From Candidatus Gottesmanbacteria bacterium (GTDB taxonomy: Bacteria; Patescibacteriota; Microgenomatia; UBA10105; UBA927): 64,000 bases of DNA. The stretch is taken from NCBI GenBank assembly GCA_023245355.1, contig JAHFKN010000002.1, positions 136,460 through 200,459 on the forward strand, in the 5' to 3' direction. Below, in pieces: positions 6,585-15,876 of the stretch (the first letter of the stretch is position 1; each line of letters starts with the position of its first letter). The position numbers were made by a program, and so were the translations under genes. Under the pieces are notes generated by a model, which saw only the letters and a program-made list of their open reading frames with translations, ran no database searches and had not been told where the DNA came from.

Positions 6585-6667
6585 GGAGGGGTGCTCCGAA
6601 TGGTAAGGAACCAGTCTTGAAAACTGGCGCCCGTAAGGGCTTGCAGGTTCGAGTCCTGTCCCCTCCG
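6585..6667 (+). tRNA. tRNA-Ser(UGA), type II
   Basis: Acceptor GGAGGGG/CCCCTCC, anticodon stem CCAGT/ACTGG with loop CTTGAAA, long variable arm, T loop TTCGAGT, G73. Confidence 0.8.
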
Positions 6668-6675
6668 CAGGCATA

Positions 6676-6760
6676 GGAGAGGTCGCATAGTGGCCTAGTG
6701 CAGCGGTTTACTAAACCGCCATATCGCAAGATATCGTGGGTTCAAATCCCACCCTCTCCG
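6676..6760 (+). tRNA. type II Ser-like tRNA with anticodon ACU (A34)
   Basis: Acceptor GGAGAGG/CCTCTCC, D stem GCA/TGC, anticodon stem GCGGT/ACCGC with 7-nt loop TTACTAA, variable-arm hairpin ATATC-GCAA-GATAT, T loop TTCAAAT, G73. Confidence 0.65.
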
Positions 6761-6768
6761 CCCTTATT

Positions 6769-12657: not shown

Positions 12658-12740
12658 GGAGGAGTGGCCCAGTGGCTACGGCATACGCTTGGAAAGCGTA
12701 CGGGAGCAATCCCTCGCAGGTTCGAGTCCTGTCTCCTCCG
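12658..12740 (+). tRNA. tRNA-Ser(GGA), type II
   Basis: Acceptor GGAGGAG/CTCCTCC, anticodon stem TACGC/GCGTA with loop TTGGAAA, long variable arm, T loop TTCGAGT, G73. Confidence 0.85.
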
Positions 12741-12913
12741 CAGTAGTTTCAGGGTTCTACCCGACCCGTTTACTACCCACGAATGGGTTGCTGTGGCTTG
12801 CTAAACTATCTTCATTTCAACATATTTCGTTTCAAGAGCCTGGAGAAAGCGTGCTTATGTTTGACGGATGTACGAGTGTTTTGTACGATAAGGACGGAAA
12901 AATTTGAAAGGAG

Positions 12914-13237
12914 GTGAAAATTATGGATCAGCAAATTGACCAAAAAATAAAAAATATACTTAATGATTGGCATAAAGCGCATGACCGATCAATGCAATTT
13001 AACGCAAAGGAAGTTGTGCCGGGTGTGCCAATCGTTCCAATCGATTTATTCCAAATGGCGTTGGCTTACGATGATGAAGAGAGGCAGTTGTTGTATTTAG
13101 AGTTGGCTTATAGTGAAAAATACCCCAAACAGTATTCAAAGGATCAAGTTACGACAATTAAGAAGCAGATTGAGAAACTCACGCATAATATAAGAGCGTG
13201 GCAGAATAGACAACTTCCGAGTGAGTATCGGGAATAA
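12914..13237 (+). CDS. hypothetical protein (island)
   Basis: Strong RBS GAAAGGAGGTGAAAATT before the ATG. 107 aa with no recognisable domain. Confidence 0.5.
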   Translation: MKIMDQQIDQKIKNILNDWHKAHDRSMQFNAKEVVPGVPIVPIDLFQMALAYDDEERQLLYLELAYSEKYPKQYSKDQVTTIKKQIEKLTHNIRAWQNRQLPSEYRE

Positions 13238-13312
13238 TGGGAAGGTTGGGTGTATTATCAGGGCGACTGAAGGGGCTAGAGCAAGAGGATGATTTGATGC
13301 AGAGTGTTTCCG

Positions 13313-14464
13313 TCAAATAGTAATATTTAATTCTGTTAATGCATTTTGGTATACCGTGGTTGTGTCAACTAATTGTGCGGCAATTTTAGGTGCATGATCT
13401 TTAGTAACTTTCATACTTATTAACGTTTGGATTAAGTCTTTTTTGTTTACCTTGTGAAGCTCGATGATGTTAACAATGTTAAGGTTCTTTTTGAGAATGT
13501 CTTGTTTCATGACTATGATATCTTTATCGGTGTGTGGAACTCCATCAAGAAGTATTGTGACATCAAGCTTCTCAATAATTTTTCGGATTTTTACTTTAAG
13601 CTCTCTGTTTAATTCGATGTGTCGTTCATTAGATTTTTCAAGAATTTGACCACTAATCTGCTCATTGTCTGCGACTGGTCCAAGCCCTATGTATTCGTCA
13701 TCCACCATGCCGACATTGGTTGGATTCATATTTGTTTCAGTGATGAGGAAATTATATTTTAGATACCCCCAATCGATATACCCCTTTTTGTTTAATCGTT
13801 GATATTCTTTCTTGTTTTTCTCTTTGACTATTTGAAGAAAGTCGCTCCACTCTTTTTGTCGTATTTTGCTTAGGTGGTATATAAGAAATTTTTTCATGTT
13901 AATGATTTGTTTAAGTCTGTCGCTTTTCAGGCGGTTCTTATTGATCAAGAAAAATGTTGAGTTTCTACCCAGTCTGGCAAACCCCAGTGCTTCAAGGAAT
14001 TTCGGGTATTGTCGGACCGGAGTTTCTAAATCCAATGACTTGGCGATTCTTCGAAGCGGCGCGCTGTAAATGAAAAGTTGAAAATACCCAGATGATCCAG
14101 CAAGAGACAAAAGATCCCTTTCTCTTATGAGTCCTTCAGCTATGAGCTTGTTTAGGAGCTTGAGTGAGTTTTCTTTAATTTCTCTTTCCCGTTCATATTT
14201 CTGTTGAGTTGTGGCCATCTGATCGAAGTCTTTTTGAAGCTTACCAGACGACCTTTTCAGCTTCTCAAGATTATCGATTGTGAGGTCGCTATTTTTGTCA
14301 TCGTTGTATTTTTGGTAAAAAGAGTGGATGAGGTCGATTGCAAAATACACATAACTGGCAAGAATGGTGTTAAAAATCGCAGCTATGAAGGCGAGAGATA
14401 GTTTTGTGCCCAGAAGCGCATATTCAGAAATGACCTTAAGCGTTGAAGATTTATTCGTTTGCAT
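13313..14464 (-). CDS. hypothetical membrane-anchored coiled-coil protein (island)
   Basis: 383 aa with two N-terminal TM helices followed by Lys/Glu-rich helical sequence. AT-rich codon usage differs from the backbone. Confidence 0.55.
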   Translation of the reverse strand: MQTNKSSTLKVISEYALLGTKLSLAFIAAIFNTILASYVYFAIDLIHSFYQKYNDDKNSDLTIDNLEKLKRSSGKLQKDFDQMATTQQKYEREREIKENSLKLLNKLIAEGLIRERDLLSLAGSSGYFQLFIYSAPLRRIAKSLDLETPVRQYPKFLEALGFARLGRNSTFFLINKNRLKSDRLKQIINMKKFLIYHLSKIRQKEWSDFLQIVKEKNKKEYQRLNKKGYIDWGYLKYNFLITETNMNPTNVGMVDDEYIGLGPVADNEQISGQILEKSNERHIELNRELKVKIRKIIEKLDVTILLDGVPHTDKDIIVMKQDILKKNLNIVNIIELHKVNKKDLIQTLISMKVTKDHAPKIAAQLVDTTTVYQNALTELNITI

Positions 14465-14490
14465 ATAGGTATCTGTTGGATATATTGTCT

Positions 14491-15651
14491 TTACATACGA
14501 GATTTTCTGTATTCCCGGTTGAGGATGTCGGTGACAACGTCCTTATTCGGCACAAAAAAGTCGAACATAATCGTTATTTTTTTGACCACTTCATAAATTA
14601 CCGGATCTAAATTTTCCTGAAGCTCATGAAGTGTCGTTTCTGTTTCCCAGGAGGCATGCTCGGACCCGCACGCATAATGAGACAGGGTAAATGCCCGCAT
14701 CGGATTCCATGCGCTCAGCGTTCTATTGGTCAATCCGTACAACGACATCTTTATTTTTACCCGTTCATTTTCGTTTACTCCTAGGTGTCGGTAATAGGCA
14801 AGACAGTGTTCCAGAGCTTCGGCCGTGCGCCATACGAGAGTGTCAAAATATAGGACGGTCTTCGGTTTGGCTTCGCCGTTTCCACTGTCCGACTCTAGAT
14901 TCCGAGCGAAGTAAAATTCGCCTTTATTCTTTGCGTACCAGTAGTCGAGTAAAAGATGGTCAGTAGGAGAGTATTCTGCTTTGATGCCATCTTCCTGCGG
15001 ATGGGGCCGTTCATCTTCACCGGTCAGGTATGCCCCGATGGGCCAACCGGTTCGACGTAATTCGGCAGCCTGAAGCGTTTCTTTAAGGGTGTCGACGGAG
15101 TATTCCGTGTAGTTGTTCGGTAGGTAGTGAATGACCTCATAGGATCCGAATTCACCTAATTTCTTCCGGAAATACGCTCCCTGCTCCTTAAACCATACTT
15201 CAATTTCCTTATCAGAGTCCTTGAGTGTAATGAGACCCCGGGAGACTAGGTCACTGAAGCTCGTGCTTTCCTTCTGCGCTTTGGCCTTCGCCCATTCAAA
15301 AAGAGGGGCGGCGATCGTCACGTTTGTTCTGACGAGATCGGTCGTTTTTTCTTGTGGGGGAAGCACAGATTTGATATCATCGGTAGTGATTTTCCCGCCG
15401 TTCATAAGCACGCGAAATCTGTCTTGTGGGAGCTGTCCTCCGGATTTTTCTATCCATGACTTCATCTCCGCGATAGCGAATTGTTCGAGTGCCTCCTGCG
15501 GGGGATCAGGTTCTTTAAAAGGGATGTCCCGGTCGAAGACGTAGATTTTGTATTCAAAATCGTTGCTTGCGTTGGTGACTGAGAGAGTGAATATCCGACG
15601 GCCATCCTCGTGTGAGACGCCAGTAACCGATATTTTGAAATCTGCAGCCAT
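14491..15651 (-). CDS. hypothetical cytosolic protein (island)
   Basis: Long ORF with no recognisable family. Start chosen at MAADFKI, downstream of a TTGACA-18-TACAAT promoter-like element. The alternative GTG start at 15711 has AAGGGAG upstream. Confidence 0.5.
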   Translation of the reverse strand: MAADFKISVTGVSHEDGRRIFTLSVTNASNDFEYKIYVFDRDIPFKEPDPPQEALEQFAIAEMKSWIEKSGGQLPQDRFRVLMNGGKITTDDIKSVLPPQEKTTDLVRTNVTIAAPLFEWAKAKAQKESTSFSDLVSRGLITLKDSDKEIEVWFKEQGAYFRKKLGEFGSYEVIHYLPNNYTEYSVDTLKETLQAAELRRTGWPIGAYLTGEDERPHPQEDGIKAEYSPTDHLLLDYWYAKNKGEFYFARNLESDSGNGEAKPKTVLYFDTLVWRTAEALEHCLAYYRHLGVNENERVKIKMSLYGLTNRTLSAWNPMRAFTLSHYACGSEHASWETETTLHELQENLDPVIYEVVKKITIMFDFFVPNKDVVTDILNREYRKSRM

Positions 15652-15876
15652 GAGGATATTGTAACATGCCATGTGTGAGTGTGTCAATACACACGAGATA
15701 GCATGAGACACTCCCTTTTATACTGTCTCATTTGTCTCATTTAGCCACGACTACGGGACACCGGAAACAGGGAATCTGGTAGAATACAGGGTAAGAGCAT
15801 GGTGGGGTTATAAGGATACTTAGGTTCCAGACCAGCATGCTCCGCCAAAGAGTGATATGCGTGAGATAATGATTCC

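Follow-up and report, generated by a model that had tools for sequence, protein, structure and literature searches.

A two-gene cassette of Patescibacteria with a conserved upstream protein and an interchangeable partner, probably an undescribed phage-defence module

Directly behind a tRNA-Ser(GGA) gene in a Candidatus Gottesmanbacteria genome lies an islet that a first-pass annotation took for a phage-defence module, on the grounds that AT-rich cargo next to a tRNA encodes a membrane protein beside a large cytosolic one. Which of its genes belong together, and does the defence reading hold? The islet is part of a 64-kb stretch of contig JAHFKN010000002.1, all of which we analysed and call the window. 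As judged by sequence comparison, the functional unit is a two-gene cassette on the minus strand at 13240-15848, in which a 386-amino acid (aa) gene (14491-15651, -) is the conserved component and a 383-aa gene (13313-14464, -) fills the slot of a partner or putative effector. The locus very likely belongs to the conflict or defence category, and the whole cassette is probably an undescribed phage-defence module. The original guess is thus supported, but by partner swapping, defence neighbours and mobility rather than by the grounds first given for it.

A conserved upstream gene with interchangeable partners

The partner slot was surveyed in the window and in 39 loci fetched with both cassette families, some of which are duplicate records of one contig. 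Wherever the 3′ sequence suffices, a same-strand open reading frame (ORF) starts between -50 and +27 nucleotides (nt) from the stop codon of the 386-family gene. In the window, 26 nt separate the two genes, and the one exception to a close partner is locus L022, in which hisG follows at a distance of 223 nt. As the partner has no promoter of its own and begins so near the 386-family stop, the two genes are co-transcribed. The identity of the partner changes among these loci, about 30 of which, all from Patescibacteria, have such a close partner. Hypoth_Ymh (PF09509), a member of the HEPN family (PMC3710099), is found in 13 loci and matches the PADLOC models Aga_HEPN and PD-Lambda-3_B; the partner is an SduA/Shedu nuclease in 8 further loci (PADLOC E = 8.5e-78, Pfam SduA_C E = 2.6e-28) and a member of the 383-aa family in 7, window included. 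In addition, DUF4917/PDC-S21 (E = 5e-114) and a 169-aa protein with a C-terminal transmembrane (TM) helix are the partner in 1 locus each. These classes have no domain in common (hhalign probability < 3%), and a docking domain shared among partners was looked for and not found. The first-pass annotation had described the large protein as a cytosolic partner of the membrane protein; instead, the large protein is the conserved component and the membrane protein the swappable one.

The neighbours of the cassette are often restriction-modification, cyclic oligonucleotide-based antiphage signalling system (CBASS) or Gabija-like genes. In L001, they comprise ResIII, N6_N4 methyltransferases, PDDEXK, HNH and DUF2726, and in L002 a CD-NTase with Cap15 (CBASS), TerB_N, DUF4145 and PLDc_2. 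HsdR is a neighbour in L007, and OLD-TOPRIM with AAA_15 in L008.

All three ORFs of the annotated islet were recovered by ORF calling. They do not form the three-gene unit that had been proposed: the block shared with L001, a 746-kb contig with the same gene order, is 13240-15848 only, and a 104-aa ORF lies outside it. Over these 2.6 kb, the window and L001 are 87% identical at the nucleotide level, compared with 69% for dnaG and 76% for the sigma-70 gene. Protein identity is 90% for the 386-aa protein and 94% for the 383-aa protein, and 60% for DnaG. Since the cassette is far more alike between the two genomes than DnaG is, it must have moved horizontally; despite the 87% identity, the L001 copy stands in a different genomic context. 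The same arrangement as in the window recurs in independent assemblies and is therefore no assembly artefact.

Homologues of the 386-aa protein form 72 clusters and those of the 383-aa protein 19, all without names, and the named organisms that carry them are Patescibacteria (Microgenomates, Shapirobacteria, Woesebacteria, and Nomurabacteria). Two metagenome-assembled genomes labelled "uncultured Gammaproteobacteria" (L013, CAYWRN010000008.1, and L014, CAYPVH010000006.1) also contain the cassette with its typical regulatory region, which may reflect a taxonomic mislabel, a binning error, or transfer beyond Patescibacteria. A phage-borne cassette was considered and rejected, as no match was found on IMG/VR viral contigs. 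Within the 64-kb window, no further paralogues of the cassette families were found.

Base composition bears out the AT-rich islet of the annotation in part. The GC content does drop right after the tRNA, but only 12742-14490 deviates (0.382 versus a window mean of 0.474; z = -2.1, which places it in the lowest 9% of windows of that size). Within this stretch, the GC content is 0.369 in the 383-aa gene and 0.398 in the segment with the 104-aa ORF. The 386-aa gene, by contrast, lies at window background (0.479; z = +0.1), and GC at third codon positions is 0.39 in the 383-aa gene and 0.53 in the 386-aa gene. In nearly all loci, the GC content of the partner is below that of the 386-family gene, which follows host GC, and this explains why only half of the window cassette is AT-rich.

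Regulatory region and proteins of the cassette

The annotation gave the large protein as 386 or 406 aa, and the gene is indeed present; of its two forms, the longer begins at 15711 and the 386-aa form at the ATG at 15651. We consider the latter start correct because a near-consensus promoter ends 6 nt before this ATG and most homologues are 384-392 aa long. The promoter (15658-15687, -) consists of a -35 box TTGACA (15687-15682), an 18-nt spacer, and a TG-extended -10 box TACAAT ending at 15658. It is the best sigma-70-type site of the region, with 11/12 matches in a consensus scan in addition to the TG extension. So short a distance between the -10 box and the start codon implies that the mRNA is leaderless or nearly so. 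The promoter is conserved in 24 loci.

The promoter region contains two sets of repeats. A perfect palindrome, GTGTGT-CAAT-ACACAC (15679-15694, no strand), overlaps the -35 box and is a candidate operator; it is unique in the 64 kb, where 0.06 copies are expected. Three ATGAGACA boxes at 15703-15740 (no strand), two of them in tandem in the gene's orientation (15724-15740, 10-nt period) and one inverted (15703-15710), represent a candidate operator or activator site. The window has 5 such boxes versus 1.4 expected, 3 of which are those at 15703-15740. A fourth lies at 14677-14684, in the 3′ part of the 386-aa gene and about 190 nt before the 383-aa start. Comparing 24 loci in which the proteins are 56-90% identical and GC varies from 0.29 to 0.50, we found AAATGAGACAAATGAGACAGTATAAAAAGG and AGTGTGTATTGACACACTnnCACAC almost unchanged, with AAATGAGACAAATGAGACAGTATAAAAAGG present in about 20/24 loci and the palindrome core invariant or nearly so across the 24. 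Inspection by eye also revealed a TG-extended -10-like box (TGGTAGAAT, TGGTAAAAT, CGGTATAAT and similar) at about 15778-15790 (+) and in other loci, on the strand opposite to the 386-aa gene and pointing toward the edge of the cassette. This box suggests divergent transcription; no conserved RNA fold was found downstream of it.

The AlphaFold2 (AF2) model of the 386-aa protein (predicted local distance difference test score, pLDDT, 83.6) begins with a beta-rich N-domain (residues 1-98) and ends with an alpha/beta C-domain (170-386); between them lie a linker and two helices (115-127 and 132-165). The segment RTNVTI precedes both helices, and R108, T109, N110, T112, and I113 are invariant in 41 homologues. 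Residues 108-144 fit the ribbon-helix-helix (RHH) pattern, and the RHH-like segment as a whole spans about 108-165. CopG aligns in register with the segment (hhalign E = 0.036, probability 1.4%), and so does a Pfam-verified RHH_1 protein encoded upstream of another 383-family gene (L044). The window protein itself gave no Pfam RHH match. An RHH in the 386-aa protein is nevertheless likely, as far as can be judged from its residues, and the combination of invariant RHH strand residues with invariant promoter repeats is what autoregulation would predict.

The 104-, 383-, and 386-aa proteins all remain below threshold in Pfam, NCBIfam, and PADLOC, and PADLOC-DB v2.0.0 returned no family at E <= 1 for any of the three. 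The only notable match is PHROG 38563 (unknown function), over residues 185-342 of the large protein. The annotated lack of a recognisable domain in this protein therefore holds for library families at threshold, but it overlooks both the RHH-like segment and a widespread C-terminal domain.

This C-domain (about residues 170-386, ~215 aa) is the part common to distant relatives with AlbA_2 or TIR N termini. An exhaustive hidden Markov model search, counted in clusters at 50% identity, retrieved 1,454 representative clusters at E <= 1e-3, of which 880 remain at E <= 1e-10; in these proteins, the domain is found alone (~220 aa) or as the C terminus of longer proteins. A Pfam census of 90 longer relatives identified N-terminal fusions to SLFN_AlbA_2 (23/90), RelA_SpoT (12/90), TIR_2 (10/90; TIR 8), SEFIR (6/90), ParA/MinD-like (3/90), and CAP12-PCTIR_TIR (3/90) domains, to Pkinase, HTH_3, and HipA (2/90 each), and to GGDEF and ThsB_TIR (1/90 each). 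Relatives of the C-domain matched the PADLOC models bSEFIR, PD-T4-6, PDC-S66, PDC-S33, and ThsB. All of these matches with known coordinates fall within the effector domain at the N terminus and none within the C-domain; for bSEFIR, this applies to one match, which covers the N-terminal SEFIR part. As far as the located matches show, no model in Pfam, PADLOC, or NCBIfam and no PDB sequence covers the C-domain, and Foldseek found no similar fold in the PDB. Because it is fused to DNA-binding domains or to toxic and immune enzymes, the C-domain behaves as a regulatory or sensor module. A fusion of AlbA_2 and C-domain (P0089) in L005 (CAZBQS010000016.1) adjoins an NmeDI_C restriction enzyme on a 7.9-kb contig with a serine recombinase, and it has no same-strand partner downstream.

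The AF2 model of the 383-aa protein (pLDDT 73) shows a single long helix at residues 5-59 followed by helices at 63-109. Starting from the N terminus, the protein comprises a hydrophobic (TM) helix, then a coiled coil and an alpha/beta domain (about 115-245), and finally a well-predicted helical domain (about 287-378). Whereas the annotation assigned two N-terminal TM helices and a coiled coil, we find one conserved hydrophobic segment (KD19 > 1.6 in windows centred on residues 25-37), for which one and two passes are indistinguishable. The segment is conserved throughout the family, with a KD19 maximum of 1.4-2.4 in all 19 members. No sequence or fold match to the family was found in PDB or BFVD.

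In two further loci (L044:5100-7146 and L045:250-2296), a 50%-identical member of the 383-aa family starts 7 nt after a gene for a 297-aa Pfam RHH_1 protein. The idea that the L044 protein is a short 386-family homologue was discarded (BLAST E = 15, hhalign E = 0.29). An RHH gene followed by a 383-family gene thus recurs with an upstream protein that is dissimilar overall to the 386 family, which fits an effector or toxin in need of tight control. The promoter layout before the RHH_1 gene of L044 and L045 is similar to that of the cassette (GTGTGATATTGACA...CATACAAT).

Edges of the cassette and surrounding features

Homology to L001 and conservation across loci both end at the cassette edge, AGGTTCCAGACCAGCATGCTCCGCCA (15822-15848, +). 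At this position, TGGCGGAGCAnnnGGGTCTGGAACC is present in 23/26 loci, about 126-194 nt upstream of the 386-family ATG, and conservation stops there. The reverse complement of the edge resembles a tRNA 3′ end (GGTTCCAGACCnnnATGCTCCGCCA), with tRNA-Ser the best match at 16-18/22 positions. The annotated tRNA-Ser(GGA) (12658-12741, +), which forms the left border of the islet, was confirmed by ARAGORN and by Rfam (RF00005 tRNA, 53.8 bits). Window positions 15824-15845 match its 3′ end at 16/22 positions in direct orientation, a score that 20/638 null windows reach as well. A clean att duplication of this tRNA was rejected as unproven, given that only 16-17 positions match and that chance gives similar scores. 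The edge sequence accompanies the cassette also in genomes without an adjacent tRNA. Proximity to a tRNA, which the annotation had taken as characteristic, is not a conserved property of the cassette: no tRNA was found in five other scanned loci, and in L006 the nearest tRNAs are 2.5 kb upstream. We also rejected a structured small RNA at the edge, which gave no Rfam match and for which RNAalifold found zero conserved pairs in 18 copies. We read the edge as a DNA-level element, possibly an att site that is either an old relic or functional. A 12-nt repeat, CACCGGAAACAG (12617 and 15759), was considered as an islet flank or promoter motif and is taken as chance, its second copy being partly deleted in the 87%-identical cassette of L001.

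On the partner side, 12 other loci carry a gene that we call X, which encodes 370-548 aa with four or more CxxC zinc-ribbon motifs and is convergent to and abuts the partner gene. The loci with X span the 383-family, SduA, and Hypoth_Ymh partner classes (for example, L002:11210-12835 (-), L001:11139-12248 (-), L020, L011, and L015), and its product has no Pfam or PDB match. The window retains a remnant of X at 13231-13320 (+), which comprises the last 27-29 codons and the stop, is 90% identical over 29 aa to X of L001 (tblastn), and is preceded by stop codons. The rest of X has been replaced in the window by the AT-rich segment with the 104-aa gene. X could be a third component of the cassette or a mobility gene.

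The replacing segment, an AT-rich filler at 12742-13239 (no strand), is outside the block common to L001 and holds the 104-aa ORF (12923-13237, +). The annotated 107-aa protein with a strong ribosome-binding site corresponds to a longer form of this ORF from 12914; the ORF and its GGAGG are present, but 104 aa from the ATG at 12923 behind GGAGG is more likely. The 104-aa protein belongs to a separate family of 19 clusters with no homologue in any cassette locus. In both other genomes examined (L040, 6001-6318, and L041, 6001-6351), members of this family stand in mobile or defence regions, where they directly follow an SduA_C (Shedu) gene of ~463 aa and overlap its 3′ end. The family may be an undescribed Shedu accessory gene that is orphaned in the window. 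A Shedu pseudogene between the tRNA and the 104-aa ORF was looked for and dismissed, as no SduA remnant was found in the window.

The islet is therefore a mosaic of the tRNA, an orphan of a Shedu-following family, a truncated X, and the intact two-gene cassette. It has the deviant GC of a tRNA island over 12742-14490 and a context that varies between the window and L001. The annotation was right that no integrase remains, none being encoded among the ORFs of 12742-15848 (ORF list, Pfam), and the decay of the islet agrees with its suggestion of an old insertion.

The window genes flanking the islet are of the envelope type (PMT_2 glycosyltransferases and an EamA transporter). A larger and more AT-rich second region lies at 57-64 kb of the window (GC 0.33-0.36), and its ORFs, inspected by eye, look to us like another defence or mobile island. 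Among them, a 337-aa gene (62954-63967, -) has a HEIAHL motif and may encode an ImmA/IrrE-type peptidase, perhaps with an N-terminal HTH. It adjoins a 387-aa ORF (61800-62963, -), and a 214-aa ORF is found at 61226-61870 (+). A further ORF of 374 aa (59502-60626, -) looks like one for a TM/coiled-coil protein with an Mrr-like IQCKNW motif. Seven tRNA genes, five for Ser and two for Arg, were found by ARAGORN inside a 6.6-kb part of the window. At 6585-6762, a tRNA-Ser with anticodon ACT (6676-6762) is called 8 nt after a tRNA-Ser(TGA); given its unusual anticodon, it may be a miscall or an atypical tRNA.

Proposed mechanism, rival explanations and related systems

How might the two genes work together? 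We propose that the 386-aa protein is a one-component sensor-repressor that gates whichever effector occupies its slot, a reading that in our judgement stands about evenly between right and wrong. The RHH-like segment would bind two kinds of repeat in the protein's own promoter, namely the palindrome that overlaps the -35 box and the tandem ATGAGACA boxes, and this binding would keep the leaderless bicistronic operon nearly silent. The C-domain, possibly together with the fast-evolving N-domain, would sense an infection- or damage-related cue and lift the repression. Once induced, the slot effector, here the membrane-anchored 383-aa protein, would act by abortive infection and stop or kill the cell under attack, presumably at the membrane. 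That the RHH-like segment binds DNA and that the C-domain acts as a sensor are predictions from motif and domain architecture, and toxicity and membrane action of the 383-aa protein, like any anti-phage effect, are likewise predicted.

The same layout could belong to a module resembling type II toxin-antitoxin (TA) systems, in which the 386-aa protein would be a hyperpromiscuous antitoxin that neutralises the downstream toxin by direct binding and autoregulates via its RHH, until a phage trigger or antitoxin turnover frees the toxin. The operon is bicistronic with the candidate antitoxin gene first, only 1-27 nt separate it from the next gene, and both an RHH-like segment and operator-like repeats are present. 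Moreover, the C-domain is fused elsewhere to the classic toxin domains RelA_SpoT, HipA, and kinase, as in fused TA proteins (PMC9712102), partner swapping among close relatives resembles that of PanA (PMC8832971, PMC10440598), and a different RHH_1 protein precedes another 383-family gene. However, the comparison of partners speaks against an antitoxin that acts by direct binding. Within- minus between-class identity of the 386 family is <= 0.012 in any domain (permutation p = 0.31-0.87), so that no domain co-varies with the partner class. The window protein is 82% identical to an SduA-paired and 80% identical to a HEPN-paired one, and the nearest 386-family relatives usually have different partners. 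The partners also lack a common docking domain, and PADLOC treats two of them, SduA and PDC-S21, as single-gene, self-regulated systems. Going by their naming in PADLOC, we assume that these two need no dedicated neutraliser. Together, the absence of co-variation and of a shared docking domain and the single-gene partners favour a partner-independent transcriptional role. With 386 aa and three domains, the protein is in addition far larger than typical antitoxins, and it has no Pfam DUF4065 match. We consider the direct-binding antitoxin rather unlikely, though a serious competitor.

Another possibility is that the 386-aa gene and X form the backbone of a small integrative element whose att edge is tRNA-Ser-like and whose slot collects unrelated defence genes to which the 386-aa protein has no functional link. 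Conserved genes frame the variable slot in 12 loci, the edge is sharp and resembles a tRNA 3′ end in 23/26 loci, the partner usually has a lower GC than the 386-family gene, and the cassette is horizontally transferred. A mere collecting site would not lead one to expect a partner that begins almost directly at the 386-family stop, lacks its own promoter, and is thus co-transcribed, nor a C-domain that in other proteins is joined to immune effectors. The cassette has no associated recombinase and was not found in IMG/VR, and X is absent or truncated in many loci, the window included; we hold this explanation to be improbable. Least probable, and in our view very unlikely, is an ordinary lineage-specific regulator and membrane protein with a housekeeping or envelope role and a coincidental defence association. 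Although the flanking window genes PMT_2 and EamA are of the envelope type and the 383-aa protein has no toxin motif, the cassette is patchily distributed and horizontally transferred, its context differs between genomes, the alternative partners are bona fide defence effectors, and the neighbours are defence-island genes. The gating, antitoxin, and cargo readings all place the locus in the conflict or defence category.

Several points weigh against the gating reading. The RHH assignment is statistically weak, given the missing Pfam match and the low hhalign probability of 1.4%, and among characterised sensors the C-domain matches none in structure or sequence. In the 383-aa protein, neither a toxic nor a catalytic motif can be recognised, and its fold gave no match. 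With 19 sequences compared by whole-domain identity, the power of the co-variation test is low, and an interface of small size would escape it. Many of the defence neighbours may merely reflect island clustering, and with a conserved convergent X flanking the cassette in 12 loci, the slot could be a cargo hotspot of a mobile element.

As a gated operon, the cassette most closely calls to mind BrxR/CapW regulators (PMC9122601, PMC11662680), in which a protein that combines sensing and DNA binding comes first in the operon, precedes many unrelated defence systems, and is found in islands. Likewise, the 386 family lies upstream of diverse defence genes, and 24 loci have kept the palindrome that overlaps the -35 box. 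The autoregulated promoter with inverted repeats and the partner-independent role of BrxR/CapW would also be shared, both being predicted for the 386-aa protein. CapW senses single-stranded DNA. However, those regulators have a winged helix-turn-helix-WYL-WCX architecture, whereas the 386-aa protein has no HTH or WYL Pfam match at E <= 0.1 and is RHH-like instead. Unlike WYL in those regulators, its sensor-type domain is also fused to TIR, SEFIR, RelA_SpoT, and HipA.

In Panacea PanA/PanAT systems (PMC8832971, PMC10440598), one conserved upstream protein is similarly combined with many unrelated downstream partners, membrane proteins among them. Panacea toxins include toxSAS-type domains, partner swaps are frequent between close relatives in both, and a sensor role is proposed for both. 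In contrast, the 386-aa protein is larger, has three domains, and shows no detectable partner-specific adaptation; DUF4065, the Panacea domain, gave no Pfam match in the window protein and is not among the families of the 90 C-domain relatives. CapRel (PMC9712102) provides a further parallel, as relatives of the C-domain are C-terminal to a RelA_SpoT toxSAS in single polypeptides (12/90). This architecture matches the CapRel logic of a C-terminal regulator or sensor controlling an N-terminal toxin, a likeness of domain order, and the window protein, unlike CapRel, carries no toxin domain.

Shedu is related through the slot, which SduA-type nucleases fill in 8 loci, and through the 104-aa family, which follows SduA_C in L040 and L041; the window 383-aa protein itself is not SduA (no PADLOC or Pfam match). 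With classical RHH type II TA systems (CopG/ParD/CcdA-type), the cassette shares a strand-helix-helix motif, operator repeats over the promoter, and a bicistronic antitoxin-first layout. It differs in that the RHH-like segment of the 386-aa protein is internal (about 108-165), between two large domains.

The logic of a regulator or sensor with interchangeable effectors is therefore known, and what is new are the proteins, the sensor domain, the operator, and the membrane effector. PADLOC 2023, Pfam 2025, and NCBIfam 2026 hold no entry for the cassette, and our literature searches, none of which was aimed at the cassette or the C-domain, turned up no description of either. A broader and tentative proposal, which we think more apt to fail than to hold, is that the C-domain represents a large family of infection-sensing modules, wired to DNA-binding outputs (RHH-like, AlbA_2, HTH) or to toxic effectors (TIR, SEFIR, toxSAS, HipA, kinases), and is a general immune sensor comparable in role to WYL, CARF, and SAVED. 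The cassette would accordingly be a plug-and-play defence operon, and the 383-aa family a new membrane effector fold.

Since the promoter and operator hardly vary, the regulatory hypothesis lends itself to direct tests in vitro, and the 383-aa family is a candidate new membrane effector. The C-domain is widespread well outside Patescibacteria and is fused to hallmark immune and toxin domains, although the curated libraries searched have no model for it; identifying its cue could explain how many TIR, SEFIR, toxSAS, and HipA single-gene systems are activated. Patescibacteria (candidate phyla radiation, CPR) have tiny genomes and are often reported to have few recognisable defence systems. If the gating reading is true, a compact mobile operon that combines one regulator with interchangeable effectors would be an economical immune strategy for these bacteria.

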